In this document: in pieces, positions 18,893-41,379 of the stretch
How the letters are laid out: each line of letters starts with the position of its first letter
Position numbering within the stretch: the stretch's first letter is position 1
Source of the DNA: Candidatus Kaiserbacteria bacterium
GTDB lineage: Bacteria; Patescibacteriota; Minisyncoccia; Phycocordibacterales; UBA918
Direction: 5' to 3'
Assembly: GCA_031430855.1 (NCBI GenBank)
Contig: JANPCG010000003.1
Location: 1-47,759 of the forward strand
DNA: 47,759 nt
Notes under the pieces: model-generated
What the model was told of the DNA's origin: nothing
The model's input: the letters and a program-made list of their open reading frames with translations, nothing else
Database searches by the model: none
Program-made: the position numbers and the translations under genes

Positions 18893-19003
18893 TTTCAAAA
18901 ATGCTTAATTACTGCGTTGCCTGCGTCGCAATGATACTCACCGTACGAAAAGTACGGCTCGCACCATTACTCCTGGTCGCCTTGTACTGAAGCCTTTTTG
19001 AAA
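18893..19003 (-). repeat. Dispersed structured element, copy 1
   Basis: TTACTGCGTT..TCACCGTAC-gaaaa-GTACGGCTC..GCCTTGTACTG inside outer IR tttcaaaaa/tttttgaaa. Confidence 0.8.
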
Positions 19004-19107
19004 CCCCTTCGAACATTTGGGTAGCCTACTGACAGTACTGGACCCTGAGTTTGCAGACGAATTTGAGAACCTATCTGTGGCTTACTAGGATACTGCAAAA
19101 AATTGTT

Positions 19108-19461
19108 ATGAAATATTGGATTAATAGATTGTCCCATCCATTTCGAGGTCTTAAATATGCATTTACCCTGGACTTTGCTGTCCGTTCTGAAACCATTATT
19201 TTTGGAATTATTGGTATTCCGGCTGCGTATTTTTTGTTTGGACCACTTTCTAATCTCGAACTCTTGCTACTTATATTTTGCTGGTTTTTTATCGTTGTGA
19301 CTGAAATCCAGAATACAGCTATTGAAATCGCGTTAACTAAGCTGCATCCAGAACTCGATGAAGCAATTGGACGAAGTAAAGACTTAATGTCAGGAGCAGT
19401 AGTCTGGACGTTTATATTTGGTCTTATCGCGCTGGGGTTTATTTTATTCGGGAAGTTATAG
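19108..19461 (+). CDS. dgkA: Diacylglycerol/undecaprenol kinase (DgkA family)
   Basis: EIQNTAIE and SKDLMSGAV motifs; three TM segments. Confidence 0.85.
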   Translation: MKYWINRLSHPFRGLKYAFTLDFAVRSETIIFGIIGIPAAYFLFGPLSNLELLLLIFCWFFIVVTEIQNTAIEIALTKLHPELDEAIGRSKDLMSGAVVWTFIFGLIALGFILFGKL

Positions 19462-19535
19462 TGGATTTTACGTCTTATCTTGCCAAAAATAGTAAGTCTG
19501 CTATAGTGTTGGACAACAAACCTTAACTTATATAT

Positions 19536-19793
19536 ATGAAAGCTGAAATTCACCCACAAAACTACCGAACGGTCATTTTCCACGATAACTCAAGTGGTGA
19601 ACGGTTCTTAATTGGTTCAACTATTGAAACCACTAAGACTGAGAAGTGGACTGACGGAGTTGAATACCCAATTGCCTTTGTTGACGTTTCAAGTGCATCA
19701 CACCCATTTTATACCGGACAAGAAAAAGTAATGGATACTGCCGGTCGAGTAGAACGCTTCAAGACCCGCGCTGGTAAGGCTCGAAGTAAGTAA
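19536..19793 (+). CDS. rpmE2: 50S ribosomal protein L31 type B (no Zn-binding Cys)
   Basis: [23 protein letters not shown]. Confidence 0.95.
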
Positions 19794-19804
19794 TAATGCT
19801 AAAT

Positions 19805-19843
19805 CACGAAACGGCTACCGCATTTCGCGGTAGCCGTTTCGTG
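19805..19843. terminator. 17-bp hairpin after rpmE2, abutting the prfA extended -10
   Basis: cacgaaacggctaccgc/gcggtagccgtttcgtg; no T-tract; followed by gtatagt. Confidence 0.45.
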
Positions 19844-19868
19844 GTATAGTTCAGCCACCTATATACGT

Positions 19869-20873
19869 ATGGAATTCTCAGATGACCAGATCACGCAGTT
19901 CAAAGAAAATCACAAAACGCAATTCCTCGCGTCGCAGTTTTCGTCGTTACTGGCTACTCGTACTTCGGCAGCAGAAATGGCCGAAAGTGATCCTGATATA
20001 GCTGAATTGGCAGCTGAAGAAGTAGCTCAAATTACCGTACAACTCGAGAGTCTCTATGCTGAAATGGAACGAATTTTGGAAACTACCAAAGAGGAAGAAG
20101 AAATTCCGTATGGGGTAGTGCTTGAAGTTCGTGCGGGTGCCGGTGGTGATGAGGCGGCCCTGTTTGCGGAAGAATTAGCCCAAATGTATCTCATCTATGC
20201 TGAGAATAAAGGCTGGTCTACCAGTCGTGATCACGAATCGCGCGCAACTGCGGGTGGTTATAAAGAAGCGTCATTTGAAATCATTAGTCCCAAAGCCTAT
20301 ATCGCCCTCCAGTACGAAACGGGTGTCCATCGGGTCCAGCGGATTCCGGTGACAGAGAAAGCTGGACGAATCCATACCTCTACGGCGTCGGTCGCTATTT
20401 TACCGCTTCGTAAAAAGTCAATTATTGAAATCAATCCATCGGACATTCTAATGGAGTTTTCGCGTTCGGGAGGAGCCGGAGGGCAAAACGTAAACAAGGT
20501 TGAGACAGCGGTGCGTTTGGTTCATACTCCTACCGGGCTTGAAGTGCGGAGTCAGACCGAACGATCACAGCTCAAAAACCGAGAAAAGGCCATGGCGCTG
20601 TTGGTGGCAAAATTAGAGGCACTCCATAATGAAACCGAAGCAAAGGCACACGCGAGTACGCGAAAAAATCAGATTGGTACCGGTGATCGCTCGGAGAAGA
20701 TACGAACGTACAATTTTCCGCAAAACCGTATCACTGACCACCGAATCAAAGTATCCTGGCATAACATTGAAGGGATTTTACAGCAGGGTAAGCTCGATGA
20801 TGTAATTGCGAGCTTGTCGAAAGCAGCAGCGGGGGAAGTGGTTGAGGGGGCGGACGAATCGGTTGCAGAATAG
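19869..20873 (+). CDS. prfA: Peptide chain release factor 1
   Basis: [16 protein letters not shown] (PxT), GGQ, RTYNFPQ. Confidence 0.95.
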
Positions 20874-20930
20874 GTGGCCCCGTGGTACTATTGCCCAGCT
20901 CTTAATTACTCGAGCGGATTTTATTATATT

Positions 20931-21704
20931 ATGTCTACACAAACTACTACAAACCTCATCGAACGGCTCTTCTCAGCCGGAGCTCATTTCGGGTTCAAAA
21001 AAAGTCGACGTCATCCAACGGTTACTCCGTACCTCTTTACCTCAAAAGACGGAAACGATATTTTTGACCTTGAACAAAGTGCTGTTCTGATTGAAAGTGC
21101 TGCGGCAATCCTTAATGAAGCAGGAAAGAACGGCAAGACCGTTATCTTCGTTGGAACCAAAGATGAGGTAGCTAAGGTAGTGAAAGACAATGCAGAAAAG
21201 GCAGCAATGCCGTACGTCACCAATCGCTGGATTGGCGGAATGCTCACTAACTTTAGTGAAATCAAAAAGCGTATCCTCCGTCTTGAGTCACTCTCAAACG
21301 AACGTGAATCGGGTGAACTTGATCGCAAGTACACCAAAAAAGAACGAGTCCTTATTAATCGAGAAATTGATAAACTTATCTTTAACTTTGAAGGAATTAA
21401 GTCAATTAATAAGACTCCAGACTTCATGGTGGTAGTAGACCCACGTCACGATTCAATTGCAGTCCAGGAAGCGCTCGATATGCGCGTGCCAGTGATTGCT
21501 ATTATGAGTTCAGACTGCAACGCGGCTACTATTACTCACCCAGTATTTGTAAACGACGCCCTTCAGGCGAGTGTGAGTGTCGTGTTAGGCGAGCTTGTAG
21601 CTGCGTTCCAAGAAGGTAAGGCGGCATTCGTGCCAAAGCCTGTCGCTCCGCGACCGGTAATCTCGAGTGATAGTCGCACGCGGCGTCCTCGGACAGCTGC
21701 GTAA
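20931..21704 (+). CDS. rpsB: 30S ribosomal protein S2
   Basis: AGAHFG, FVGTK, RWIGGMLTNF; ATG 20931 preferred as start. Confidence 0.96.
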   Translation: MSTQTTTNLIERLFSAGAHFGFKKSRRHPTVTPYLFTSKDGNDIFDLEQSAVLIESAAAILNEAGKNGKTVIFVGTKDEVAKVVKDNAEKAAMPYVTNRWIGGMLTNFSEIKKRILRLESLSNERESGELDRKYTKKERVLINREIDKLIFNFEGIKSINKTPDFMVVVDPRHDSIAVQEALDMRVPVIAIMSSDCNAATITHPVFVNDALQASVSVVLGELVAAFQEGKAAFVPKPVAPRPVISSDSRTRRPRTAA

Positions 21705-21780
21705 CGTTCAGTAGTTGCGTAAATGCGCTTGTCCCCGTTGTCGCTCAGATTCTTTTGTTTAGTCATTTATACTTGTACCT

Positions 21781-22365
21781 ATGGAAATAACATCAACCAT
21801 GATCAAAGAGCTTCGTGACGCAACGGGTATTTCTGTCATGCAGTGTAAAAAAGCCCTTGAAGAAGCGGGTGGCGATATGGAGAAGGCCGTGATTATTCTT
21901 AAGAAGAAGCGTAGTGAAGCAGCAGACAAGAAATCAGATCGAGAATTAGGTGCCGGTGCGATTGGTGCCTACATCCACAACACAAACGAAGTGGCTGCGC
22001 TGGTGCTGCTTTCTTGTGAGACGGACTTTGTTTCTAAAAACGAAGAATTTATTGCACTTGCTAAAGATATTGCGATGCATGTAGCAGCGAGTAACCCAAC
22101 CTATATTCATAAATCAGAAATTGATGAATCTATCCTTGCTAAAGCGACTGAAGTGTTCGCCGCTGAAGTAGTTGGGAAGCCAGCAGAAATGCTAGAGAAA
22201 ATCCTCGCCGGTAAAATGGATGCGTATTTCAAAGAGCAGATTCTTATGGAGCAATCATTTATTAAAAATCCTGAGACTACCATTGGAGAAATGATTAGTG
22301 GTGCGGTCCAGAAATTTGGAGAAAACGTTTCAATCGCTAAAATTTCACGACTCTCGGTCAAATAG
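21781..22365 (+). CDS. tsf: Elongation factor Ts (short form)
   Basis: KELRDATG..CKKAL, CETDFV motifs; follows rpsB. Confidence 0.95.
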   Translation: MEITSTMIKELRDATGISVMQCKKALEEAGGDMEKAVIILKKKRSEAADKKSDRELGAGAIGAYIHNTNEVAALVLLSCETDFVSKNEEFIALAKDIAMHVAASNPTYIHKSEIDESILAKATEVFAAEVVGKPAEMLEKILAGKMDAYFKEQILMEQSFIKNPETTIGEMISGAVQKFGENVSIAKISRLSVK

Positions 22366-22370
22366 CTATA

Positions 22371-22802
22371 ATGACGAGCGCCCTCACGTTTGCTGCTGTA
22401 AATCTCGTCTTGCTGGTGATATTGGGTCGTGTATTTGCGCTTGAAAAGCACCGTGGCAGGCGTTATTTCGCGACTGGCGTTCGTAATGCTGTTGATGACC
22501 TCATTACTCTCATAACGCTACGGTGCCTTCGACTCTATACCTACATCGCGCGCTACGTCATTACGTTGTCGTGGTACTACAGTCTGCATGCGTTGCTAAA
22601 GGTGATTCTTCGTTTCCTTGCCGGCACCTATGCGGCGGTTGAAGCTCTCTTACATCATAATCGAAAGCGCGCCCGAATAATTAGGATTGAGCGAAAGCGC
22701 GAACGTTCTCATTTGTCGGTTATTGCTGATCATAAAGCTGATACGGCTCTTTCCCCGGGCGAGAAAGCCAAGCGAAAAGAAAAGGCGTTAGCGGGGAAGT
22801 AG
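22371..22802 (+). CDS. Hypothetical basic membrane protein
   Basis: 143-aa ORF starting 5 nt after tsf; N-terminal hydrophobic stretch. Confidence 0.6.
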   Translation: MTSALTFAAVNLVLLVILGRVFALEKHRGRRYFATGVRNAVDDLITLITLRCLRLYTYIARYVITLSWYYSLHALLKVILRFLAGTYAAVEALLHHNRKRARIIRIERKRERSHLSVIADHKADTALSPGEKAKRKEKALAGK

Positions 22803-22920
22803 ATAACCGTAGTTGCGTTTTTACGCCAATCGGGCATAATAGCGTAACTTCAAAAAAGAAGGTTGAGAAAATCTGTAGAGCGTAATTTTTTTAAAGAAGT
22901 ATAAATATTGAAACCTTAGA

Positions 22921-22993
22921 GCCATCTTAGCTCAGTTGGTAGAGCAACTCACTTGTAATGAGTAGGTCGTCAGTTCGAATCTGACAGATGGCT
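22921..22993 (+). tRNA. tRNA-Thr (anticodon TGT); CCA not encoded
   Basis: Cloverleaf: GCCATCT acceptor, D arm GCTC/GAGC, anticodon arm ACTCA-CTTGTAA-TGAGT, T arm GTCAG-TTCGAAT-CTGAC, discriminator T. Confidence 0.96.
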
Positions 22994-23198
22994 CTAAGGT
23001 TTTAATTTCCCATCTCAGTAGAGTCAGGAGAGGTGAGGATGGGTTGGGTGAGAAGTGACTAAACGTCACTACGTAAGACCTTTTGAGAAATCTTAGATTC
23101 CCAATAGGTTTACCACTTCTGTAAGAAGACATTCAAACTACTTGTAATGAGTAAGCAAAGCTTTCTTGAACGGCACTCAAGTCAGATATAAAAGTAAA

Positions 23199-23353
23199 CT
23201 TTTCTATCGACTTCCGAGTGAGGTCATACTGTATGCTTTGCATACAGATGCGAAAGCTAGCTTTCCGTTTGTTATTTTTTCATAAGTCATGCCAGGCACA
23301 GTCTGGCTTTTCTATTTCCGAATGAGGCCATACCGTACGCTCGCATACAGACG
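23199..23353. repeat. Two ~50-bp imperfect direct repeats, each containing a hairpin
   Basis: cttttctatcgacttccgagtgaggtcatactgtatgctttgcatacagatg (23199-23250) vs cttttctatttccgaatgaggccataccgtacgctcgcatacagacg (23307-23353). Confidence 0.7.
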
Positions 23354-23429
23354 GCTTAAATACTCGGTATCTATAAGCGTTGGTTGTGCTACATTTTACA
23401 AACTCCTTTATCCTCGATACCATACACCT

Positions 23430-23975
23430 ATGTCAATAAAAATAACCTATTTCGTTCACGGCACTACCACTGATAATGAGCAGCACCTCTCCTCTGGTTG
23501 GAATGATGTTGATCTCTCTGAGGAGGGGATTTCTCAATCCTGGGAATTAACTGAGCTGACAGAGCATTTAAAATTTGATGCGGTATTCTGCTCGGACCTT
23601 AAACGGGCGGTTGATTCAGCAGAAATTGCCTGGGGTGGTAAATATCCGATTATGCAAGACGCGAGGTTGCGTGAGTGTAACTATGGTGACCTGAATGGGC
23701 AGTCTTCAGATATTGTCGAACCAATGCAGGAAAAATCTATCACGGAACCAATGCCTAATGGTGAAAGTTATGAAATGGTTAAAGTGCGCATTGAAAGTTT
23801 CTTGCAGCATCTAAAAACAAATTTTGACAACAAACATATAGCGATTGTTGCCCATAAGGCCCCACAGCTTGCACTCGAGGTGATTCTAAACGGTATGACG
23901 TGGGAGGAGGCTTTTGCTAACGATTGGCGCAAAACGAAAGCTTGGAAGCCAGGCTGGGAGTACGTTTTAAACTAA
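23430..23975 (+). CDS. Histidine phosphatase (phosphoglycerate mutase-like) family protein
   Basis: VHG (RHG variant), SDLKRA, LRECNYG, GES, IVAH; ATG 23430. Confidence 0.85.
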   Translation: MSIKITYFVHGTTTDNEQHLSSGWNDVDLSEEGISQSWELTELTEHLKFDAVFCSDLKRAVDSAEIAWGGKYPIMQDARLRECNYGDLNGQSSDIVEPMQEKSITEPMPNGESYEMVKVRIESFLQHLKTNFDNKHIAIVAHKAPQLALEVILNGMTWEEAFANDWRKTKAWKPGWEYVLN

Positions 23976-24225
23976 TATCCGACCACACCTACCCGCACCC
24001 CTTCCAACAGAAGCTGTTCACTCATTGGTTAATTTGTTTCGCAAGCTCACAAATTACCTCAACGAGTCTTGCGAAGTGGGTTCTTACAGAACCTGTACGG
24101 GTTGCCAGCTATTTTCAAAAAATAGCGGGCAACCCTGTTATGAATGACATAAGTCATTCATAACCCCATCCCACTTCTCACCCCTTTTTTTCCCCACCAA
24201 ACCGGGGTATACTACACAGATACGT

Positions 24226-25779
24226 ATGGAAGAACAATCCCACCTGCTGCCGTATGCTCGGCGCTCTGATTTTCACGTCGGTCGCGCGACGGAGCTTTCT
24301 GGAAAGCGTCGAATCTTATATCGAGTTTTTGAAATCCTTCCCGGTCTTGCTTCCTGGTCAACCCTGATTGGAGTAATTTTGATGTCAATTTATGCGCCGT
24401 TTATCGCGGCGTACTTTATTATTGCCTTTGCGCTCTTTTGGGTACTTAAAACTGGTTTTTTGTCGTACCACCTCCGCTATAACTGGAAGCGATTGCAGCA
24501 TCACACAAAACTTGATTGGGGAGCTTTGGTTTCAGATTTTTCGTACAGTCACATCCATCACGTAATAATTTTGCCATTTTATAACGAACCTGAGTCGGTG
24601 ATTGATGCCACTCTGACATCACTTGCTAACACCAAATACGACAAGTCAAAGTTAATTGTCGTGTTGGCGAGCGAAGAACGGGCTGGAGAAGCTGCTACTA
24701 CGGTAGTTGCCAATATGACGGCCAAGTTTGGTACTGCGTTTGGTGTATTTTTAACGACAGTTCATCCGAAAAACGTGCCTGGTGAGATGGCAGGTAAAGG
24801 ATCAAACGCCACCTTTGCCGCTGAAAAAGTTCGAACTGAGGTGCTTGATAAAAAGGGTATTAGCTATGGCGAAACATTGGTATCGATTTTTGATATTGAT
24901 ACGGTTTTGTACCCGGATTATTTTAACTGCTTAGTGTGGCACTTTATGACAGCGCCGCGACCACTCAAGTCATCATTCCAACCGGTTCCCATCTTTAATA
25001 ACAACATGTGGGAAGCCCCTGCCTTGGCCCGAGTGGTCGCGATGAGTAGTACGTTTTGGGAAATGGTGCAACAGGAACGACCAGAACGGATGGCCACCTT
25101 TTCTTCGCACTCTGTCAGTTTTCAAGCGCTCTACGAAGTTGGCTATTGGCAGACTAATATGGTGAGTGAAGATTCTCGTATCTACTGGAACCTCATGATA
25201 GCAAATGATGGTGAATACGATGTGATCCCACTCTCTTACCCGGTCTCGATGGACGCAAACGCAGCACCGACCTTGTGGCGAACCATTGTACAAATCTATA
25301 AACAGCACCGCCGGTGGACCTATGGGGTTGAAAATTTCTGCTATATTCTATATCACTTTTTGAATAACCCGCGTATTCCACGTCGGACCCGGGTAAAAAT
25401 TGCTCTCCAGCAAGCCGAAGGGTATTGGTCATTAGTTACTAACCCAATCATGTTATTTATTCTGGGGTGGGCGCCGATTTTCTTGGGGAGTCAAGAATTT
25501 CACCAAACAGTGTTGTCATACAATTTGCCAATTGTGGTACGTGACTTGCTTATCCTTGCCATGTTTGGGTTAGTTATTTCATCCATTATTTCACTTTCCT
25601 TGATTCCACCGCGCCCCGCTAGCGCCAGTCGCCTCCGCTACATTGTGATGGCACTCCAGTGGTTCTTGGTACCAGCAACGATGATCTTCTTTAGTGCGAT
25701 TCCAGGCCTTGATGCCCAGACTCGTCTTATGTTCGGACGGTATATGGGATTCTGGGTCACGCCTAAGACGCGCGCATAA
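24226..25779 (+). CDS. Membrane GT2 processive-type glycosyltransferase
   Basis: PFYNE, DID, SED and QHRRW (QxxRW) motifs; multiple TM helices. Confidence 0.88.
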   Translation: MEEQSHLLPYARRSDFHVGRATELSGKRRILYRVFEILPGLASWSTLIGVILMSIYAPFIAAYFIIAFALFWVLKTGFLSYHLRYNWKRLQHHTKLDWGALVSDFSYSHIHHVIILPFYNEPESVIDATLTSLANTKYDKSKLIVVLASEERAGEAATTVVANMTAKFGTAFGVFLTTVHPKNVPGEMAGKGSNATFAAEKVRTEVLDKKGISYGETLVSIFDIDTVLYPDYFNCLVWHFMTAPRPLKSSFQPVPIFNNNMWEAPALARVVAMSSTFWEMVQQERPERMATFSSHSVSFQALYEVGYWQTNMVSEDSRIYWNLMIANDGEYDVIPLSYPVSMDANAAPTLWRTIVQIYKQHRRWTYGVENFCYILYHFLNNPRIPRRTRVKIALQQAEGYWSLVTNPIMLFILGWAPIFLGSQEFHQTVLSYNLPIVVRDLLILAMFGLVISSIISLSLIPPRPASASRLRYIVMALQWFLVPATMIFFSAIPGLDAQTRLMFGRYMGFWVTPKTRA

Positions 25780-25789
25780 TTACTTTGAT

Positions 25790-26956: not shown

Positions 26957-26963
26957 GTTTTAT

Positions 26964-30123: not shown

Positions 30124-32238
30124 ATGGCCGACAAAGCACCCAAAAAAGCAACCTATGATGCCTCCTCGATCTCTGTCCTCGAAGGACTTGATCCGGTGCG
30201 TAAACGACCGGGGATGTACATTGGTACAACTGGACCAGAAGGTTTCCACCACTTGATTTGGGAAGTATTTGATAACTCGCGCGATGAAGCGATGGGTGGT
30301 TTTGCAAACCGGGTCGAGGTAGCGTTGTTGCCGGGTGGGTATGTACGTGTAGTAGATAACGGGCGTGGTATTCCGGTTGACCTCCATAAACAAACGGGAG
30401 TCTCTGCCCTCGAGACCATTCTCACCGTGCTTCACGCCGGCGGTAAATTTGGGGGTGAGGATTCAGGGTACAAAGTGTCTGGTGGTCTCCACGGCGTGGG
30501 TGTGTCGGTTATGAATGCCCTTTCGACGCACGTCATTGTCGAAGTACATCGTGATGGAGGACACTATATTCAAGAATATGCTATCGGTATACCCAAGTAC
30601 AAAGTGAAAAAACTCGGTGCTTCGAAAATGCAAGGAACGGTCGTCACTTTCCAAGGGGACGCCAGTATTTTCCCTGATACCACCTATGACTTCAAAAAAA
30701 TTGTGACCCACTTGCGTCAACAGGCGTACTTAGTAAAAGCGATGCAACTGTCGGTGATTGATGCACGTACAGCTGCCGGAGAGGAAGCTGTAGTGCATGC
30801 CTCCACAGATAAAGCGCTCGGGAAATTTCTGGATGGACTACGGGGTAAAATGTATCTCTCGGATGAACACCTTGAAGTACCACATCAACATTTCTATTTT
30901 GAAGGAGGGCTCCGTTCGCTCGTAGCATTCAATAACCAGTATCAAAAACCCGTTCACAAAAACATTTTTTATGTAGAAAAAAATGATTATGATAAAATGG
31001 TACTTTCGGTTGAAGTAGCACTACAATACGTGGATGATATTTCTGCTCGTATCTCGGCCTTTGCGAATAATATCTACAATCCAGAACACGGAACTCACAT
31101 CACTGGGTTTAAGACAGCGCTCACCCGAACCCTAAATAACTACGCCAAGAAAAACAACTTCTTTAGTGTCAAAGACAAAGACGCCGGCTTTACGGGAGAT
31201 GATGTGCTCGAAGGAATTACCGCAGTAGTGTCAGTCAAGATGCCAGAAATTCAATTTGAAGGCCAAACAAAAGCGAAACTTGGATCAGTCGAAGCTCGTG
31301 GTGCCGTAGAGTCAGTGTTCGGCGAAGCCTTTAATATGTACCTTGAAGAGAATCCTGATGATGCCAAAGCCATTATCAATAAAGTGATTATCGCCGTGAA
31401 GGCGCGAAAGGCCGCGAAGGCTGCTAAGGATAGTGTCTTACGTAAGGGAATGCTCGAAGGGATGTCGCTCCCCGGTAAGTTGGCTGACTGCCAGAGTAAG
31501 AAGGCGAGTGATTCAGAGCTCTTTATTGTAGAGGGGGACTCAGCGGGTGGTTCGGCAAAGATGGGACGCGATCGAAAGACGCAGGCAATCCTTCCGCTCC
31601 GGGGAAAAATCCTCAATGTAGAACGCGCTCGTATCGATAAAATGCTCGGTTCAGAACAAATTAAAAACCTCGTGATTGCGATGGGCACTGCCATTGGTGA
31701 TGTGTTTGATATCGAAAAACTCCGGTATCATAAGGTAATTATTGCGACCGACGCTGACGTTGACGGAGCGCACATCCGGACGCTCTTGCTCACGTTGTTC
31801 TACCGGTACTTTAAACCGCTGATTGAAGCAGGGTTCATCTACATTGCCCAACCGCCACTCTATAAAATTCAGAAAGGGAAAGATGTTCGCTATGCCTATT
31901 CTGATTCAGAAAAAATGCAGGTCTTAAAAGACCTAGGTGAAGACCCAGCTGCCGATATCGGAGCGGTTGAAGACGAAGAAGAAGAGACAGAAGAAACAGC
32001 GACTGCTACCAAGAAGCCAGGTCGGGTGCGGATTCAGCGGTACAAGGGTCTCGGTGAAATGAATGCTGATGAATTGTGGGAAACAACAATGAACCCAGAA
32101 TTTCGTATCCTCAAGCAAGTAACGATTGATGATGGGCAATTAGCGGATAAGATTTTTGACATCTTAATGGGGACGGATGTACCGAGTCGGAAGTCTTTTA
32201 TTCAGTCTAACGCCAAGATGGCCACCCTCGACATCTAA
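30124..32238 (+). CDS. gyrB: DNA gyrase subunit B
   Basis: VRKRPGMYIG, DNGRGIP, HAGGKF, EGDSAGG, PLRGK, DADVDG, RYKGLGEM. Confidence 0.96.
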   Translation: MADKAPKKATYDASSISVLEGLDPVRKRPGMYIGTTGPEGFHHLIWEVFDNSRDEAMGGFANRVEVALLPGGYVRVVDNGRGIPVDLHKQTGVSALETILTVLHAGGKFGGEDSGYKVSGGLHGVGVSVMNALSTHVIVEVHRDGGHYIQEYAIGIPKYKVKKLGASKMQGTVVTFQGDASIFPDTTYDFKKIVTHLRQQAYLVKAMQLSVIDARTAAGEEAVVHASTDKALGKFLDGLRGKMYLSDEHLEVPHQHFYFEGGLRSLVAFNNQYQKPVHKNIFYVEKNDYDKMVLSVEVALQYVDDISARISAFANNIYNPEHGTHITGFKTALTRTLNNYAKKNNFFSVKDKDAGFTGDDVLEGITAVVSVKMPEIQFEGQTKAKLGSVEARGAVESVFGEAFNMYLEENPDDAKAIINKVIIAVKARKAAKAAKDSVLRKGMLEGMSLPGKLADCQSKKASDSELFIVEGDSAGGSAKMGRDRKTQAILPLRGKILNVERARIDKMLGSEQIKNLVIAMGTAIGDVFDIEKLRYHKVIIATDADVDGAHIRTLLLTLFYRYFKPLIEAGFIYIAQPPLYKIQKGKDVRYAYSDSEKMQVLKDLGEDPAADIGAVEDEEEETEETATATKKPGRVRIQRYKGLGEMNADELWETTMNPEFRILKQVTIDDGQLADKIFDILMGTDVPSRKSFIQSNAKMATLDI

Positions 32239-32360
32239 TTGCGTCAAAATCCTCATCTACTTCGTTGCTTCCTTTGTTCGTTGATTCACCGTACATTAAG
32301 TACGACTCATCAACTCACGCAGTCGCGCCTCGTAGCTGAGAGATTTATGTCCGCAATTAG
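32235..32360 (-). repeat. Dispersed structured element, copy 2 (overlaps gyrB stop)
   Basis: CTACTTCGTT..TCACCGTAC-attaa-GTACGACTC..GCCTCGTAGCTG; outer IR ctaattgcg/cgcaattag. Confidence 0.8.
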
Positions 32361-32401
32361 TTTATGGAAGTACCGGATGTTGCTAAAGGCTATTAATTAA
32401 A

Positions 32402-32442
32402 TAAAAAAATACCACCACCCGAGAGGGTGGTGGTGTTTTTTA
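32402..32442. terminator. Bidirectional intrinsic terminator
   Basis: aaaaaaataccaccaccc-gaga-gggtggtggtgtttttt. Confidence 0.88.
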
Positions 32443-33628: not shown

Positions 33629-33657
33629 TTGACAAATCAATAAATTCATGCTAACAT
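33629..33657 (+). promoter_or_regulatory. Sigma70 promoter of the sortase gene
   Basis: TTGACA-17 nt-TAACAT with TG extension, 9 nt before ATG. Confidence 0.65.
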
Positions 33658-33666
33658 ACAGACCTT

Positions 33667-34344: not shown

Positions 34345-34467
34345 GAGTAAAATTACCGAGAAAAAATTAGAAAAGTCAGGTCTAAAGCTTGACTTTTCTT
34401 ATTTTATATGATATTATAGTGAAAGTATGAAACGCGCTACGGCGCCACATTGGCTTAGGAGGCCATT

Positions 34468-34773: not shown

Positions 34774-34804
34774 AGCGGAAATACTATCCGCTCCCCATAC
34801 CACT

Positions 34805-34838
34805 GGCCCCTGCATACATGCAGGGGTCTTTCTTTTTA
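34805..34838 (+). terminator. Intrinsic terminator
   Basis: ggcccctgcat-ac-atgcaggggtc then tttcttttt. Confidence 0.75.
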
Positions 34839-35013
34839 TCCGTATATTAGTTTGGATTACGAGGGGGTTGACAGGATGCGATTATACTTGACAAATGCTG
34901 CATCGTCTGATAGTATGGTGTGGTACAACGTCCTATCTGTTCTTAACGAGAAGACGTCCTTTGAAACTCAGGGTGCCTGAAAGCATCTAAAAATGGCTGA
35001 GGAGGCCAATACG

Positions 35014-35535
35014 ATGAAAAACCTTATGTTGGCGGCCGTCCTGGCTGTTTCTGCCTTCGTCGGGATGTCTGATTCGGCGTTCGCAAATTGCGCACCCGAC
35101 ATGACTGTCTCGACCCGAGCTTGTCCTATCTTTACTCCCGAAGGTGACCTTGTCACCAGCGGAACGGTGATTCAGAATCTCGACCTTTGGGTCGATATCT
35201 GCTACCCGGCGGAAGATTGGCAATCTCAAGAAGCCCGGACCGGTCAGCGACCATTCTTTGTGTCGCTCAACGTTACTGGCGAACGTGGTGTCATTCGGGG
35301 GATTCCTCGCTATACGTCCCGTGAAGACATGAAAGATGCCAAACTGATTCAGGCCCAGTGCTACCGGCAGTACTATCTGCCGGGCTGGGTGGTGATGACC
35401 ATCACCAAATGTCGCGAGGAAGGCTTCAACGTCTTCCTTACGACCCGGGTCCTCTCCGCGGACGATCACGGGAACACTGTCTTCTTCGAAGGTCGGCCGG
35501 ACCTTGACCGTTACGCATACCGCGTGCGGTACTAA
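35014..35535 (+). CDS. Secreted hypothetical protein (Cys-containing)
   Basis: SD AGGAGG; signal peptide MKNLMLAAVLAVSA..AFA; promoter TTGACA-17-TAGTAT (34888-34916); downstream hairpin 35542-35573. Confidence 0.65.
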   Translation: MKNLMLAAVLAVSAFVGMSDSAFANCAPDMTVSTRACPIFTPEGDLVTSGTVIQNLDLWVDICYPAEDWQSQEARTGQRPFFVSLNVTGERGVIRGIPRYTSREDMKDAKLIQAQCYRQYYLPGWVVMTITKCREEGFNVFLTTRVLSADDHGNTVFFEGRPDLDRYAYRVRY

Positions 35536-35650
35536 GATCTCGGTATGGGCGCGAATTTATTTTCGCCCATACCACCTTTAATATTCTTGCGTACATGGTG
35601 TAGGTAAGAATATCGAGAGGTTATCAAATTTATTATTTCAATTATTGTTT

Positions 35651-38600
35651 ATGAAAACTACTATTACTAAAGTATCAATCACCCTCACCTTGGCGGTATT
35701 TGCCTTCGGTGTATTTGGGTATGCTACTTCAACTGATCTTTTGATCAACGAAGCCCAGGCTGTTGTCGGTGACTCAGGTGGATGTGGTAGTTGTGGAGGA
35801 GGTGGTTCAACCGGTGGCGATGGTGGAGGTGGCGGTACTACCGTTACTCCCCCAGCCTGTGATGTTTCAACAAATATTAGTTCAGTTGTGGCGGGTGCGT
35901 CATACACCATTACGTGGAATGTCGGATCTGCTTCTTCCGTAAACGTATACATCAATGGTGCACACGTAAACAAAACTGGTTCAGCAACCTATACCTTCCG
36001 TGACGTAAATAACACTGAGACGTTCCGTCTCACTGCACAAAACGCCGGTGGTAGCTGTAACGATACTGTTGTCGTGACAAAAACTGTTGTTAATACTCCG
36101 TCACCAACGTGTGATATCCGAACGAATCTCTCAGTCGTAAGTGCCGGTGAGGCGTATACCATTTCATGGAATGGGACACCATCAACCGGAACTACCTTCC
36201 GCGTGAATGGTGTGGTAGTGGCTCCGACCGATTCAGCTACGTACAGTTTCCGTGCTGTGAATAATACTGAAAAGTACACGATGACGGGAACAAACTCAGG
36301 CGGAACCTGTACTGATGAAGTAACGGTAACCAAGAAGGCTCCAGAAATTCGTACCTGTGATGTCCGAGCGAGTGCTACTTCAATTGCAACGGGTGGAAGT
36401 ATTACGCTTACCTGGGCAACCCAAGGCTTCTCAGATATTAAAATTAACGGCGTTGCTGTAACGGGCGCCAATGGAACAAAAACCTACACCAACATTCAGG
36501 CGAATACGACGTATACCCTGACTGCCAAAACGGCTGATGGTACCGGAAATTGTACGGCTACCGTAACGGTAATCTGTGTACCGCCAGTAGTATTGCCCCC
36601 TTCATGTGTGATTACGGCTAATCCGTACACAATCACTGCCGGCGGATCATCAAACCTCTCTTGGACATCACAGAATGCAGTATCAGCGTCACTTAACCAG
36701 TCAATTGGTAGTGTGGCAGTTAATGGTACGCGTTCAGTGTCACCAAGTAACACGACAACGTACACGATGACCGTGACGAACTCAGCTGGAGTTACTGCAA
36801 CGTGCGCTAGGGCAATTACTGTTACTCCGGTAGTGGTACCTGCACCTACGTGTGCACTGTATGGTAATCCACACACGATTGATGCTGGGAACTCAGCTCG
36901 TCTGACTTGGACGTCACAGAACGCAGTAACCGGTATTATCAATCAAGGTGTTGGTGAAGTAAATCCAACGAATACTGCCGGATACCGTGACGTGTCACCA
37001 AGTAACACGACAACCTACACGATGACGGTTACGAACTCAGCTGGAGTTACTGCAACGTGTGCTAAGACGATTACCGTTGTGCCACGACCAGAAGCTCCGG
37101 TGTGTAACTCATTTACTGCCAATCCTGCAACCATTACTCGTGGTGGAAACAGTACTCTTTCGTGGAATACTACCAACGTTACTGCTGTAACAATTAACAA
37201 TGGTGTCGGCGCTGTCGCGGTTTATGGTTCAACCAGTGTCTCTCCGATTGATACGGTGACCTACACGCTTACCGCAACAGGTGCCAATAACCAACAGGTA
37301 TCATGTCCGGTAACCGTAACGGTGAGTAATCCACCAGAAGATACTAAGCCGGTCTGTGAATCATTCACCGCTTCACCAAACTCACTTCCAAACGGAGGCG
37401 GAAACACGACACTTACGTGGAATACAAGTCGAGCTACTAACGTGAGTATTTCACCAAATATTGGTGCCGTAGCCACTGATGGACAGCGACTTGTGTCAGT
37501 AACTAACTCAACTACCTACACGCTCACTGCCCGTGATGCAGATAACGACTCAGATACCTGTACTGCACAAGTTACCGTAGCACCGGTTAATCCTCCTGTT
37601 ATTACTTGTTCAGCTAACGTAAACTTCACGGCCAGTCCAACCTCAATCCGAGAAGGACAGAGTACAAACCTTGCCTGGAACACCAATGGAATCACGAGTG
37701 TTCGATTTGATAATGGTATATCAACTACTGGTCTTTCAGGATCAGTGAGTGTCAATCCAACCAGTGATCGAACCTACACCCTTACCGCTTCAAACGGAAC
37801 TGATACTATCAATTGTCCAATCTCAATTAACGTTGATGAAGATAATGGTGGCGGTGGCGGAGGTGGTACACCAACCCCACGTTGTGAACTTAAAATCAGT
37901 GATCGTACCATCAATCGTGGTGATCGAGTAACCCTTACCTGGGAAACTTCAAATGCGACTGAAGTTGAGCTCGAAGACAATCACGGTAAAACCCTCATTA
38001 CGACTGACGGAAAGAAAAGTAGTGACAAGAAAGATCTCTACGATGGCGAAATCACGCTCCGTCCTGATCGAGATACAACCTACACCCTCTTAGCTGAGCG
38101 TGGAAGTAAGGATAAGACCTGTACAGTGAAAGTGGCTGTTAAAGATAGTGTCGTGGTTCTTGAAACTCGTGACCAACAGCCGCTCGTAGCAGGTATTGCC
38201 CTTACCCAAGTGCCATACACTGGATTCGAAGCTGGTCCTTTCATGACTGTGATGTTCTACACATTACTTGCTTTATGGGCACTCTACCTCGCCTACATCT
38301 TTGTGATTCGCCCAAAGATGGGGATGGTTCCAGCAACTGCTGCGGTCGTATCAGACAATGTCTTTACTCCGCATATGTTTGCAGCTCCAACAACGAGTGT
38401 ACCGAACTTCCATCCGGAAGTAGTGGCTACCCCAGCGATTGCCGCCCTTAGCACTGCAGTTGTTGGCTATGAATCACACGTGTCTGATGAAGTCACAATG
38501 ATTGAGAACCGCGCTCATGCAGCTCATATCCTTCTCTCAGGAGAAGCAATTGCACACCTTACGGTGATTGGGAATACCAATAATCTTGATGAAATTCTTA

Positions 38601-38692
38601 CGAGTGTATTTGTAAAAGCAAAGGCATCGTATCCAAGTGAGGAGGGGTGGGTTGTTATAAACCTCGAACGACTCGCTGCTCTCCTTAGTTAA
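35651..38692 (+). CDS. Large surface protein with nine Cys-bracketed Ig/PKD-like repeats, VPYTG sortase motif, TM helix and cytoplasmic C-terminal domain
   Basis: Repeats C..A.P.TI..G.S.TL.W...N......TTYTLTA....C; TQVPYTG then a hydrophobic helix and RPK; 255-bp-period DNA duplication at 36737/36992. Confidence 0.85.
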   Translation: MKTTITKVSITLTLAVFAFGVFGYATSTDLLINEAQAVVGDSGGCGSCGGGGSTGGDGGGGGTTVTPPACDVSTNISSVVAGASYTITWNVGSASSVNVYINGAHVNKTGSATYTFRDVNNTETFRLTAQNAGGSCNDTVVVTKTVVNTPSPTCDIRTNLSVVSAGEAYTISWNGTPSTGTTFRVNGVVVAPTDSATYSFRAVNNTEKYTMTGTNSGGTCTDEVTVTKKAPEIRTCDVRASATSIATGGSITLTWATQGFSDIKINGVAVTGANGTKTYTNIQANTTYTLTAKTADGTGNCTATVTVICVPPVVLPPSCVITANPYTITAGGSSNLSWTSQNAVSASLNQSIGSVAVNGTRSVSPSNTTTYTMTVTNSAGVTATCARAITVTPVVVPAPTCALYGNPHTIDAGNSARLTWTSQNAVTGIINQGVGEVNPTNTAGYRDVSPSNTTTYTMTVTNSAGVTATCAKTITVVPRPEAPVCNSFTANPATITRGGNSTLSWNTTNVTAVTINNGVGAVAVYGSTSVSPIDTVTYTLTATGANNQQVSCPVTVTVSNPPEDTKPVCESFTASPNSLPNGGGNTTLTWNTSRATNVSISPNIGAVATDGQRLVSVTNSTTYTLTARDADNDSDTCTAQVTVAPVNPPVITCSANVNFTASPTSIREGQSTNLAWNTNGITSVRFDNGISTTGLSGSVSVNPTSDRTYTLTASNGTDTINCPISINVDEDNGGGGGGGTPTPRCELKISDRTINRGDRVTLTWETSNATEVELEDNHGKTLITTDGKKSSDKKDLYDGEITLRPDRDTTYTLLAERGSKDKTCTVKVAVKDSVVVLETRDQQPLVAGIALTQVPYTGFEAGPFMTVMFYTLLALWALYLAYIFVIRPKMGMVPATAAVVSDNVFTPHMFAAPTTSVPNFHPEVVATPAIAALSTAVVGYESHVSDEVTMIENRAHAAHILLSGEAIAHLTVIGNTNNLDEILTSVFVKAKASYPSEEGWVVINLERLAALLS

Positions 38693-38812
38693 AGATTCCA
38701 AAATTGACGCATTGCTTCGTTCGGCACGTCGTCATAACTCTCATCGTACAGAAAGTACGCCTCGAGCTATGACTAGCACCGGCCTCGCACTGCATTCAAT
38801 TTTGAAACTTTA
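38690..38812 (-). repeat. Dispersed structured element, copy 3 (overlaps stop codon)
   Basis: TTGCTTCGTT..TCATCGTAC-agaaa-GTACGCCTC..GCCTCGCACTG; outer IR caaaattga/tcaattttg. Confidence 0.8.
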
Positions 38813-38832
38813 GAGTAAGTTAGACAGAAGAA

Positions 38833-38868
38833 ACAAAACCGCCAGGCCTTACTGCCTGGCGGTTTTGT
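38833..38868. terminator. Bidirectional intrinsic terminator
   Basis: acaaaaccgccaggc-cttact-gcctggcggttttgt. Confidence 0.85.
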
Positions 38869-38897
38869 GTTATAGGAAGTGCGTTTCGTTAATTGGA

Positions 38898-39482
38898 TTA
38901 ATTTGTACTCAGGTTAAGTAAGCACTGATACGTATCCTCACTTCCGGTCACAGTATAGGCAGTACCGCCTAATTTTTTGAAGATAGCACAACTTTTTATA
39001 GAATCTTCTACTAAATAAGCATTTTCGATATCTCCTTTTACGTACTTGATAAACGAAGATCCATTATCATCAGTCTTGAGTATTTTTTCATCGTAGGAGT
39101 TTACGATAACATCAAAATACTCAAAAAGCCGTAACGAGGGTACGGTGAATCTGTTAAAACAGTCCATGTTCCCAGTAATAAGAACTACATGAAATCTATT
39201 CTTCAGATCATGTATTAATTCAAGCAATTCTTTCCTTACTGTCATCGTATTACAATCATGTACGAATGTTTCCCAAAGATATTGGTAGTTAAGTCCAGTT
39301 TCTTTAGCAACAAGTGTATTAATTTCTTCAGAACTATATTTGCCTCTCATCCAATCAGTAACCAGGGGGTTCTTTTCAGAAAATAAATAATCTTGGACCT
39401 GTTTATTTTCAACGGTACGTAAACTCCTCCAAAATCGATCGTGGCAAATTGTGCCGTCAAAATCTACGAATAATGTCTCCAT
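38898..39482 (-). CDS. HAD-superfamily hydrolase
   Basis: FVDFDGT motif I, LITGN motif II, LVEDS motif IV; AT-rich. Confidence 0.85.
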   Translation of the reverse strand: METLFVDFDGTICHDRFWRSLRTVENKQVQDYLFSEKNPLVTDWMRGKYSSEEINTLVAKETGLNYQYLWETFVHDCNTMTVRKELLELIHDLKNRFHVVLITGNMDCFNRFTVPSLRLFEYFDVIVNSYDEKILKTDDNGSSFIKYVKGDIENAYLVEDSIKSCAIFKKLGGTAYTVTGSEDTYQCLLNLSTN

Positions 39483-39496
39483 TTTATATCTGAGGA

Positions 39497-41251
39497 TTAA
39501 ATCTTCTTAGTTCTAACTTCCTCTGTCAATTGTGGTGCAAGATTTTCGAGTTCAATCGTAGCCGAAGTCCCATCACGACTCTCAAGTGTTACAGTCTTGG
39601 CTTCGACTTCTTTGTCACCAATGACGATGAAGTAGGGGAGTCGGTCAGTCTTCGCCTTACGAATTTTCTTACCCATGGATTCGTTGTCGTCATCAAGGGA
39701 GGCACGCAGGCCGGCTGTTTTTAGAATTGTTACGACACCTGCTGCATATTCGTTGTGTGTCTCCATTACCGGGATGACGCGTACTTGTTCGGGCGCGAGC
39801 CAGAGCGGGAAGTTTCCACCGACGTGTTCAATCAAAACAGCTAGAAATCGTTCAAGTGATCCCGCAATCGCTGCGTGAATCATGACAATCGGTTCCTTCT
39901 CGCCTTTTTCGTTGGTGCAGAAAAGATTAAACCGACCTGGCATCAAGCGATCGAGTTGAATCGTCGCAACCTGGTGTGTACGTCCAATCGAATCCTTTGC
40001 CATAAAGTCGAGCTTAGGCGCATAAAACGCCGCCTCACCCACCCCTTCGAAATAGTCCGCTTCACGGTCCATAGCAATTTGCTTCATGAGGCCCTCAGTT
40101 TCTTCCCAGATACTTGGTTCACCTAGGTATTTTTCTTTGTTGGCGGGATCATGAAATGAAAGTCGTACTCGTAACTTAAAGTTAAAGGCTCCATAAAATT
40201 CGTTCACAATGTCCCAGATTTTTTCTATTTCATCACGTAGTTGTGATTCGCGACAGAACACATGCGCATCATCTTGGGTGATGGAGAGTACTCGCGTTAG
40301 ACCGTTTAACTCTCCAGACTGTTCGGCTCGGTACACCATGGTTGTTTCAGCATACCTTTGTGGGAGGTCTCGGTATGACCGTGGTACGGCGTCATAAATT
40401 TGGGTATGATGCGGACAATTCATTGGTTTGAGAACGTACATCTCATGTTCGTCACCTTCCTTGGCGCTTACTTTAAATAAATCCTCACTGTATTTATTCC
40501 AGTGTCCTGACGTTTCGTACAGTGATTTTTTGGCAATATGCGGAATGGTTACGTGTTCATACCCACGAGCATCTCGGAGTTCTTGCACAAAGTCGTCGAG
40601 TCGTTGTCGTAACGCTGTCCCTTTCGGAGACCAGAGAGGGAGTCCGGCTCCGACTAATTCAGAGAACGAAAATAGCCCCATCTCTTTACCGAGTTTTCGA
40701 TGGTCGCGTTTTTTGGCCTCTTCAATCATTTTCAGATACTCATCGAGTTCACCTGCGGTATCAAACGCTAAACCATACACGCGGGTGAGCATGGGGTTTT
40801 TCTCATCACCGCGCCAATATGCACCGGCTACCTTATCGAGCTTAAAGGCATCAGTATCAAGTTCTTTGTTTGGGTGCTCACAGTGTCCACCGCGACAGAG
40901 ATCGGTAAAATCTCCACAGGTATAGAGGGTAATGGTTTCGCCTCGTTCAGCGATTTCATTAACGAGTTCGAGTTTGTACGGATTTGAGGCATAGAGAGTG
41001 CGCGCCTCATCGACACTCACTTCACGATGTGAAAATTCATTCCATGAGTTCAAGATTTTCTTCATCGACTTCTGGATGTCCTTGAGGCCATCGTCACCAA
41101 GCGCTGGTCCACCAGAAAAATCAAAGTCATAGTAAAACCCATTATCAATTGCCGGACCAAGCGTCAGTTTGGCGTGTGGGTAATTCTGCAACACTGCTGC
41201 TCCCAGCAAATGCGCTAAGGTGTGCCGTTTATTTTGTAATGAATTTTCCAT
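39497..41251 (-). CDS. thrS: Threonine-tRNA ligase (no N-terminal TGS domain)
   Basis: RHTLAH, DLCRGGH, GAYWRGD, RDHRKLG, KPMNCP, QDDAH, GSLERF; ATG 41251. Confidence 0.97.
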   Translation of the reverse strand: MENSLQNKRHTLAHLLGAAVLQNYPHAKLTLGPAIDNGFYYDFDFSGGPALGDDGLKDIQKSMKKILNSWNEFSHREVSVDEARTLYASNPYKLELVNEIAERGETITLYTCGDFTDLCRGGHCEHPNKELDTDAFKLDKVAGAYWRGDEKNPMLTRVYGLAFDTAGELDEYLKMIEEAKKRDHRKLGKEMGLFSFSELVGAGLPLWSPKGTALRQRLDDFVQELRDARGYEHVTIPHIAKKSLYETSGHWNKYSEDLFKVSAKEGDEHEMYVLKPMNCPHHTQIYDAVPRSYRDLPQRYAETTMVYRAEQSGELNGLTRVLSITQDDAHVFCRESQLRDEIEKIWDIVNEFYGAFNFKLRVRLSFHDPANKEKYLGEPSIWEETEGLMKQIAMDREADYFEGVGEAAFYAPKLDFMAKDSIGRTHQVATIQLDRLMPGRFNLFCTNEKGEKEPIVMIHAAIAGSLERFLAVLIEHVGGNFPLWLAPEQVRVIPVMETHNEYAAGVVTILKTAGLRASLDDDNESMGKKIRKAKTDRLPYFIVIGDKEVEAKTVTLESRDGTSATIELENLAPQLTEEVRTKKI

Positions 41252-41259
41252 ATAGGAGG

Positions 41260-41379
41260 AAACGTGCACAATCAACGCATTACTTCGTTATGGAGCCTCT
41301 AAGATTTATTCACCGTATAGGGCATACGACTCACAAATCTTTTCTCCATGCCTCGTACTGCATTTGATTCTGAACGTTT
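41260..41379 (-). repeat. Dispersed structured element, copy 4 (inside the thrS 5' leader)
   Basis: TTACTTCGTT..TCACCGTAT-agggc-ATACGACTC..GCCTCGTACTG; outer IR aaacgt..aatcaa/ttgatt..acgttt. Confidence 0.8.

Follow-up and report, generated by a model that had tools for sequence, protein, structure and literature searches.

A lineage-specific family of palindromic repeats anchored at stop codons, probably mobile non-autonomous DNA, in one family of Patescibacteria

The stretch of DNA analysed here (the window) comprises 47,759 nucleotides, positions 1 to 47,759 of contig JANPCG010000003.1 in assembly GCA_031430855.1 of a Candidatus Kaiserbacteria bacterium, and contains four copies of a palindromic repeat at gene ends. 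Patescibacteria, or the candidate phyla radiation, have genomes of about 1 Mb in which very little repeated or mobile DNA has been described. The four copies belong to a lineage-specific family of ~130-bp palindromic repeats found in one Patescibacteria family (class Paceibacteria), and this family of repeats is probably mobile non-autonomous DNA. A first-pass annotation, made from the letters alone, had placed four hairpins of the same orientation in the window; a covariance model (R1) recovered all of them as placed, within slightly wider bounds and all on the minus strand, with E values of 5e-15 to 6e-22. Their position at gene ends was also borne out, with copies 1 to 3 starting at stop codons and copy 4 lying just upstream of the thrS start. 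The copies and the features around them are as follows.

18883..18885, plus strand: TAG stop ending the SLT-domain open reading frame (ORF) 17488-18885, at the edge of copy 1
18884..19014, minus strand: copy 1; R1 E 4.3e-21; minus-strand fold -43.4 kcal/mol, z -6.45; begins with no gap (0 nt) after the TAG of the upstream plus-strand gene
32236..32238, plus strand: TAA stop of gyrB (30124-32238), lying within copy 2's outer stem
32232..32362, minus strand: copy 2; R1 E 1.8e-19; minus-strand fold -46.7 kcal/mol, z -6.7; directly 3' of the gyrB stop
32411..32434, no strand assigned: canonical GC-rich terminator hairpin, ~50 nt beyond copy 2 and outside the repeat
38690..38692, plus strand: TAA stop of ORF 35645-38692, lying within copy 3's outer stem
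38687..38817, minus strand: copy 3; R1 E 5.8e-22; minus-strand fold -56.2 kcal/mol, z -7.0; directly 3' of the TAA of the 1015-aa ORF
38833..38868, no strand assigned: bidirectional terminator hairpin, ~16 nt beyond copy 3 and outside the repeat
41255..41385, minus strand: copy 4; R1 E 5.4e-15; minus-strand fold -42.5 kcal/mol, z -5.7; in the thrS leader

Plus-strand folds of copies 1 to 4 reached -30.5, -37.9, -35.8 and -29.8 kcal/mol (z -3.7, -6.1, -4.4 and -3.8). The ORF before copy 2 carries gyrB domains and the ORF next to copy 4 carries threonyl-tRNA synthetase (ThrRS) domains. At copy 2 the base of the hairpin pairs with the gyrB stop codon, all three nucleotides of which (3/3) are paired across, while at copy 4 the folded strand is in the sense of thrS (ATG 41251-41249, minus strand). 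Terminators had been reported near copies 2 and 3, and terminator-like sites were detected there at 32411-32434 and 38833-38868; the terminator scan found none inside copy 1.

The source genome (G000; other genomes, contigs and loci are cited below by similar labels) measures 1.08 Mb in 16 contigs and is rated 99.96% complete, with the window as its contig C3. Nineteen seed copies were picked in it by a regular expression for the apical motif and aligned with MAFFT, with no fit to structure, and R1 was built from this alignment; in all 19 the better fold was on the strand opposite to the motif. R1 gave 55 matches in the source genome at E<=1 and 52 at E<=2e-5, the window's four copies included, such that a count of four holds for the window and not for the family. 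With 55 copies of ~130 bp, the element accounts for ~0.7% of the 1.08 Mb. The contig C4 (89.8 kb; dnaG, rpoD and atp genes) holds 19 of the 55 matches, C12 one and C11 none. The wider search that had been proposed for relatives detected R1 matches in 24 of 24 congeners (2-78 per genome). When 120 other genomes from this GTDB family were surveyed, 105 had matches, representing nine of ten genera, and the remaining 15 had none. Among other families of the order only 1 of 16 had matches, two in number and both weak. The range across relatives is thus 0 to 78; these are matches, not curated copies, the relatives are not independent of one another, and in the 120-genome survey, with at most 28 candidates scored per genome, the counts are lower bounds (at least). 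No match was obtained in 983 kb of contigs from more distant Patescibacteria, which came from a metagenome scan with ThrRS where relatives were <=61% identical, while the relatives recovered with GyrB were Candidatus Kaiserbacteria, Paceibacteria or Parcubacteria metagenome-assembled genomes (MAGs). Because the seeds were chosen by their apical motif, R1 under-detects subfamilies with other apical stems, and such subfamilies were spotted by eye at gyrB in G048, G012 and G049.

The first-pass annotation could assign the hairpins to no named family, which remains the case. No hairpin copy in the whole window matched Rfam 15 at gathering score, only a tRNA at 22921-22993 reaching the cut-off, and over 38600-41500 none of seven weak matches at E<=10 lay mainly on a copy. 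Two of these weak matches, with the terminator at 38833-38868 as their centre, extend back as far as 38781 and 38798 and so touch the last bases of copy 3. The commonest apical motif had no exact match in a viral contig collection, and full-text searches on palindromic, miniature inverted or extragenic repeats in Patescibacteria, the candidate phyla radiation and Parcubacteria yielded no such element. The anchoring at stop codons and the spread over a whole bacterial family go beyond what had been noted from the window.

Read from its base on the folded strand, the hairpin starts with a variable outer stem, 14-32 bp long and reminiscent of A-tract/T-tract sequence, often weakly so and of the type TTTCAAAA / TTTTGGAA. 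Above this stem are a short covarying helix of 3 bp and then an asymmetric internal loop that is invariant, with (G/T)AGGC on one side, AACAAMG on the other and one G-C pair within. A short covarying helix with a small AAG-type purine loop follows, then a variable, covarying stem of ~10 bp and, above it, an invariant GAG opposite UGA, which would form tandem G-A pairs plus a G-U pair. The tip consists of an apical helix of 5-6 bp with a loop of 4-6 nt, and this helix also covaries in more distant copies. Loop residues are all purine-rich on the folded strand. RNAalifold applied to the 19-copy alignment predicted a single long hairpin with 34 pairs, compensatory changes being present in 27, in agreement with the shared motifs and the unlike yet pairing stems that are visible in the sequence of the window copies. 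Pairing cells made up 87.1%, compared with 64.5 +/- 1.4% in 500 shuffles, none of which reached 87.1%. When the partner was slid by 1-3 columns, pairing dropped to 33-44% and the covariation score, 0.621 in register, to 0.10-0.16. The compensatory change from CGTAC/GTACG to CGTAT/ATACG noted in the window corresponds to a single column pair, C-G in 14 copies and U-A in five. The folds and the 19-copy covariation indicate that structure is kept and sequence is free while the internal loops are invariant, as had been proposed from four copies.

The strand on which the hairpin folds had been argued to be the minus strand, and this holds over the genome. The minus strand was lower in energy in 53 of 53 copies (means -48.7 vs -35.2 kcal/mol) and had 235 G-U pairs and 6 A-C single mismatches, compared with 96 G-U pairs and 56 A-C mismatches on the plus strand. 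In the 19-copy alignment there were ~70 G-U cells on the minus strand, of which 19 represent one invariant pair, vs 7 A-C cells. Since the genes at whose ends the copies are anchored lie mostly on the G-rich strand, mutational skew would place G-T pairs on the plus strand. The G-U asymmetry is opposite to the local GC skew, which suggests selection on the minus-strand fold.

Genes in the source genome were called as longest ORFs of >=90 aa, chosen greedily (998 in total, 87% of the genome). For 39 of the 55 copies an ORF stop was located within -10 to +20 nt of the model start with the motif strand as sense, while the reverse arrangement was found for one copy only; a further copy is anchored to atpE, an ORF below the 90-aa cut-off. 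In G018 an uninterrupted reading frame spans the entire 300-nt flank before 16 of the 20 top copies and terminates at -8 to +11. Copies follow housekeeping genes such as gyrB, rpoD, dnaG, atpE and that of a DEAD-box helicase, and some lie inside operons, for example atpB-atpE-atpF. Relative to the anchored gene the folded strand is antisense in 39 copies, and in 27 of 55 it is antisense to the ORFs on either side; leaders in which the folding strand is sense account for four copies by count, plus one upstream of atpE identified by eye. The anchored stops comprised 22 TAA, 17 TAG and no TGA (n=39) against 472, 215 and 90 genome-wide (chi-square p 0.016; probability of no TGA 0.008), and in G018 they were TAG in eight cases, TAA in seven and TGA in one.

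The stop codon is often part of the hairpin. The minimum-energy folds of 27 of the 39 copies paired at least one stop nucleotide with the far arm, and those of 17 paired all three. Under a strict, ungapped Watson-Crick test the stop was paired together with at least two further inward pairs in 13 of 39; the helix ended at the stop or 1 nt beyond it in ten of these and ran 6-10 nt into the coding sequence in three. Around TAR/YTA, 13 of 39 clear cases had a TA ... TA pattern that would be compatible with a direct target-site duplication, in a comparison that included no exact empty site, and a purine followed the 3' YTA in 12 of 16 clear cases (p 0.04). The proposal that TAA or TAG is part of the end of every copy was rejected: of the 14 full-length copies that have no called-ORF anchor, nine had TAA/TAG at the boundary, vs 43% of random 22-mers, and the excess was not significant.

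A canonical terminator follows 10 of the 39 anchored copies, in eight of them 19-32 nt beyond the element end. The corresponding frequency for other genes is 179 of 952 (p 0.30), with a median stop-to-terminator distance of 20 (interquartile range 10-28.5). The element sits between the stop and the native terminator, at the normal stop-to-terminator spacing. Copies do not show the GC-rich stem and direct T-run, ending the unit, by which intrinsic terminators are defined, and the canonical terminators that follow 10 of the 39 are separate from them. The terminator-like arms, together with the long palindromic terminators of the clade that reach the stop codon, raised the possibility that a core had been inserted in the loop of a pre-existing terminator, which was rejected as a general rule because a separate terminator is present at normal distance and because identical outer arms occur at two loci. 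In the gyrB-downstream loci L034-L057 (e.g. L041), intrinsic terminators are themselves long, near-perfect palindromes with A-tract/T-tract arms, and terminators of the clade can take in the stop codon and last codons of the gene (L041).

Orientation had been proposed for comparison with replication. Anchored genes are co-oriented with replication in 27 of 32 cases vs 68% genome-wide (p 0.03), and 36 of 47 copies have their bottom strand as part of the leading-strand template; yet five anchored genes are head-on to the skew-defined direction and at these the element is flipped along with the gene. Element orientation tracks the gene, not replication alone.

Orthologous loci, for which a comparison of empty sites had been suggested, proved to be filled or empty at the gyrB, copy 3 and copy 4 sites. 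At gyrB an element starts at the stop in 8 of 30 congeners according to R1, in three more by eye (G018, cut by a contig end; G009, decayed; G048, divergent) and in 10 of 80 further named MAG loci. The C-terminal residues of GyrB are identical at filled and empty sites, and the stop codon is therefore the native one; where the site is empty, the stop is immediately followed by a canonical terminator. The stems present at this site fall into at least six unrelated lineages. The gyrB copy of the closest relative, G018, is wholly unlike that of the source genome, whose version is shared by the more distant G024 and G001. At the copy 3 site G024 and G012 carry an element, and no match was obtained in G018 or G009. 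Copy 4 is absent from the site upstream of thrS in G018 and G024, which carry a short palindrome there. Four directly abutting tandem pairs were found, in G002 and G024.

Direct alignments of five chosen groups, which provide examples of mosaicism and not a census, showed that parts of the hairpin vary independently. The copies at C4:46910 and C4:48447 have cores of ~86 nt that are 100% identical and outer arms that are unrelated yet still paired; these same-orientation copies bracket the gene of a DEAD-box RNA helicase (C4:46910-48577). The opposite combination occurs at C4:19129 and C4:23087, where the outer arms and main loop are identical and the inner stems unrelated. A third pair, C10:20153 and C10:52385, is ~88% alike over its full length and over ~13 nt of the donor gene's end. 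Block boundaries in these mosaics are symmetric within the hairpin.

Pairing of the arms can also extend into the coding sequence beside them. The gyrB copies pair 1-6 nt of the native coding end with an inverted copy downstream, and 16 nt in G012 and G049, where the hairpin is closed by a 19-nt inverted copy of each species' own gyrB 3' end. Between these two copies (53 pairs), 33 pairs were unchanged, 12 doubly compensated, 2 one-sided and 6 broken. The orthologous copies of G007 and L121 (56 pairs) had 48 unchanged, 1 doubly compensated, 5 one-sided and 2 broken pairs, and those of G000 and G024 (54 pairs), the weakest case, had 38, 2, 4 and 10, respectively. Judged from such alignments, orthologous copies keep their pairing in place. 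Intrastrand template switching has been proposed as an origin of RNA hairpins (PMC8794818); the perfect arms, the symmetric module boundaries and the inverted copies of a gene end found here are as this process would be expected to produce. However, template switching is a mutational process and not an element, and leaves the invariant loops, the family and the stop anchoring unexplained. A general arm-copying of this kind may act on all hairpins of the clade, and would account for perfect arms but not for invariant loops.

These observations are best accommodated, with a probability that we put at about 0.5, by a non-autonomous mobile DNA hairpin that is defined by its structure and follows a REPIN- or attC-like logic. 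Such a mobile hairpin is preferred because of the range in copy number, the filled and empty sites, the reoccupation of one site, the abutting tandems and the exchangeable modules. A single-stranded DNA form of the bottom strand is favoured because in 39 copies the fold runs antisense to the gene at the anchor, and in 27 to the ORFs on both sides, and because the repeat contains no promoter; in the 19-copy alignment no conserved sequence that could be a promoter was found 5' of the fold. The element would act as single-stranded DNA of its bottom strand, and a dedicated trans-acting, structure-specific enzyme would read the invariant loops, leaving the stem sequence free provided that it pairs. 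New copies would land immediately 3' of TAA or TAG, probably in its TA dinucleotide, such that reading frame, native spacer and native terminator would stay intact. After insertion the arms may be kept complementary, and sometimes extended into the gene's last codons, through compensatory evolution or intrastrand template switching, and modules may be exchanged between copies. We hypothesize that the lack of TGA, the TAR...YTA ends, the purine after YTA and the abutting tandems reflect insertion into TA with TA duplication. The use of the gene end as an anchor most likely has contributions from both insertion chemistry (a TA/TAR target) and selection; selection could produce orientation and anchor because only insertions of this type spare reading frame, spacer and terminator.

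The first-pass annotation had pointed to HUH/RAYT or tyrosine recombinases as potential partners. Candidates of both types are present, but none could be pinned down as a mobilising enzyme. The mobile-type genes of the source genome are two weak RAYT-like Y1 ORFs, one XerC/D-type recombinase and one unclassified reverse transcriptase; the genome has no IS110 and no TnpB, and the RAYT-like ORFs are the only transposase-like genes found in it. Its single tyrosine recombinase scored 187 bits as XerC/D vs 70.5 bits on the integron-integrase model (cut-off 265). In the five highest-copy genomes tested there was no DDE_3 (IS630-type) match above cut-off and no DDE_Tnp_1 (IS4/5-type) match. The reverse transcriptase was rejected as a general mobiliser on finding one in only 2 of 41 relatives; its ORF (C13:153420-154442, or 1421-2446 of L152; 341 aa) has weak similarity to retron and group II models. 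One RAYT-like Y1 ORF, on contig C6, is flanked by identical palindromes with 14-nt arms at C6:39165-39185 and 39854-39874 (L150: 1662-1690 and 2351-2379), the only two copies in the genome and a classic REP-RAYT layout. A palindrome of the C6 type occupies the thrS upstream site in G018 and G024, where the source genome has copy 4. The second, shorter RAYT-like ORF, on C10 (L151: 2302-2745, minus strand), is flanked by GTAG-headed palindromes at 2143-2255 and 2769-2810. Across 14 Y1_Tnp loci and one reverse transcriptase locus no flanking R1 copy was found, the sole match being ~1.4 kb from the C10 gene. Of the 24 congeners, 16 had Y1_Tnp matches, as did 9 of the 16 other families, the sole one of these with weak R1 matches not being among the nine. 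Y1_Tnp was also detected in 12 of 14 genomes whose R1 count was >=20 or at the cap, vs 1 of 5 with none (Fisher p 0.017, the relatives not being independent). Copies (2-23 matches) without any Y1_Tnp match occur in 8 of 24 congeners. A sequencing-run search returned eight DNA runs and one metatranscriptome, the latter with a small share of sampled words (0.13); four runs examined gave low-depth contigs, none informative over a copy.

Several points weigh against a mobile hairpin of this type. No enzyme was identified, and both RAYT-like genes of the source genome are flanked by short palindromes of their own, unlike the long element. The loops, and copies at the same site, persist over deep divergence, which could equally mean a host function. 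No insertion polymorphism between near-identical strains was observed; the nearest genome is ~75-80% identical in DNA, and at this distance comparisons provide no exact empty site, no proven target duplication and no proof of recent movement. The statistics behind a TA target are weak, and a simple TA duplication would not predict the pairing that many copies show beyond the stop codon. The gene calls on which the anchoring counts depend are crude. The folded strand lies on the leading-strand template (36 of 47 copies), the opposite of the arrangement in IS200/IS605-type ssDNA transposons.

As the main alternative, the repeat could be a cis-acting RNA element of the host genes, carried in mRNA, mostly in the 3' untranslated region and in a few 5' leaders or operon spacers, serving as stabiliser, processing site or auxiliary bidirectional terminator; REP, ERIC and Correia sequences have such mRNA roles in other bacteria. 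Copies are indeed placed inside transcription units, between stop and terminator or within operons (atpB-atpE-atpF), follow housekeeping genes, are anchored to genes that are co-oriented with replication more often than average (27/32 vs 68%), and have outer arms with A-tract/T-tract motifs resembling the terminators of the clade, while the maintenance of pairing at orthologous sites across species and the long persistence of copies keep this explanation alive. It is nevertheless unlikely, as the wobble asymmetry and the lower energy (53/53) favour the strand that is absent from the mRNA, and mutation bias would not explain a G-U asymmetry opposite to the local GC skew. Moreover, relatives with the same gene set range from 0 to 78 copies, 15 of 120 family genomes have no match, and a terminator is equally frequent after the element and after other genes, indicating that the element does not replace the terminator. 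A protein-bound non-coding RNA (ncRNA) was one of two functions offered by the first-pass annotation, the other being a mobile hairpin of single-stranded DNA; the latter fits better, and the former is weakened by a folding strand that is mostly not expected to be transcribed. Under the ncRNA explanation the copies would be multicopy small antisense or independent RNAs from the minus strand, bound by protein through their purine-rich loops, which we regard as very unlikely. The strand-specific fold, the invariant internal loops and the tandem G-A plus G-U motif, common in RNA-protein sites, would suit it, as would the leader copies with the folding strand as sense (four, and the one upstream of atpE) and one promoter-like consensus match at copy 1, on the minus strand of the outer arm and reading into the upstream gene. 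Against this, no promoter-like site was found at copies 2 and 3, no conserved promoter or flank belongs to the repeat, bidirectional terminators part copies from convergent genes, 55 near-redundant RNA genes are implausible in 1.08 Mb, and Rfam has no relative.

The remaining alternatives attach the repeat to an established mobile system. As a sub-case of the mobile hairpin, it could form a REPIN-like population moved by the genomes' own RAYT-like Y1 (HUH) transposases, which are the sole transposase-like genes found in the source genome and loosely track abundance (12/14 vs 1/5, Fisher p 0.017 among non-independent relatives). This is quite unlikely: unrelated short palindromes flank both RAYT-like genes of the source genome, no R1 copy flanks any of the 14 Y1_Tnp loci examined, 8 of 24 congeners have copies without Y1_Tnp, Y1_Tnp occurs in 9 of 16 other families without the R1-positive one being among them, and the opposing sides of the main loop do not form an inverted pair of a single REP. 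The REP/RAYT connection drawn by the first-pass annotation is accordingly not upheld, and the same applies to its attC-like logic as far as the boxes are concerned. REPINs have two inverted REP copies at the hairpin base, whereas the conserved blocks here are non-complementary internal loops and a G-A motif along the stem, not mutual reverse complements. We know of no description of stop-codon anchoring in one orientation for REPINs. The two are alike as dispersed extragenic hairpins of ~100 nt in tens of copies that persist vertically, with a single-copy enzyme gene elsewhere. According to PMC3116915, REPINs are long hairpins in which some parts are conserved and another varies, often with compensatory changes, and they have a putative intermediate with a 5' tail; one copy pair here has ~13 nt of 5' flank in common. 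Integron-type attC sites, marking gene cassettes and recombined by an integron integrase, are extremely unlikely even though they have the same layout, in which an imperfect palindrome of ~60-140 nt comes immediately after an ORF, folds on the bottom strand and keeps structure while its sequence is free. The complementary R''/R' core boxes of attC (RYYYAAC ... GTTRRRY) pair to form the R box; here the conserved boxes lie opposite one another in an internal loop and lack complementarity. The copies form no arrays and are dispersed behind housekeeping genes in conserved synteny, and there is no integron integrase, the sole tyrosine recombinase scoring as XerC/D and below the integron-integrase cut-off. 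The likeness extends to invariant unpaired features, as described in PMC5371416, where the bottom strand also has a leading-strand-template bias in 25 of 30 sedentary integrons; the corresponding fraction here is 36/47.

The absence of a related autonomous insertion sequence or DDE transposase in five high-copy genomes and the strict orientation to the upstream gene set the family apart from miniature inverted-repeat transposable elements (MITEs). Bacterial MITEs such as Correia/NEMIS, ERIC and RUP are long hairpins of ~100-150 bp with a TA target, intergenic, co-transcribed, and tandem or nested. The repeat is like them in its size, palindromic form, intergenic position, possible TA target, and tandem and nested copies. 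However, copies of a MITE have their terminal inverted repeats, and most of their sequence, in common, whereas here stems and termini differ wholly and the loops are kept. The PATE elements derived from IS200/IS605 have separate left and right sub-terminal hairpins and an active strand on the lagging-strand template; the repeat is a single continuous hairpin. The element fails the defining tests of attC sites, REPINs, classical MITEs and IS200-type derivatives. Conservation of the loops only, a fold antisense to the gene and a hairpin locked to the stop codon form a combination that is new compared with known palindromic repeats. More tentatively, the repeat could represent a new class of mobile DNA, a dispersed and integron-independent counterpart of attC and REPIN, in which an enzyme confined to one Patescibacteria family would insert a bottom-strand hairpin, recognised through its invariant loops alone and with free, self-correcting stems, precisely at the TAA/TAG stops of ordinary genes; if true, a recombination system can read the gene end as its target.

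The repeat has been retained while an entire bacterial family radiated. Should it be mobile, its enzyme would be a new structure-specific nucleic-acid tool, and if it serves the host it would be a new type of gene-end signal. The element breaks assemblies, the gyrB contig of G018 ending inside a copy, and is a ready marker for the clade in which R1 can annotate copies.

Other features of the window were noted alongside the repeat. A second hairpin repeat family, of ~70 nt, is represented at ~23985-24080 and at eight other places in the source genome (nine hits to a 13-mer with one mismatch allowed). Five of these nine repeats abut the 3' side of low-scoring copies of the long element, and one lies inside the gyrB copy of G046, which suggests nesting or a composite subfamily. 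The segment 41403-41460, between copy 4 and the next ORF, is near-identical in G018 and G024 while its flanks are only ~75-80% alike; it had no Rfam match at E<=10 and may be a structured leader or small RNA upstream of thrS. At the other end of the window, an ORF of >2350 aa (3-7061) runs off the window start.

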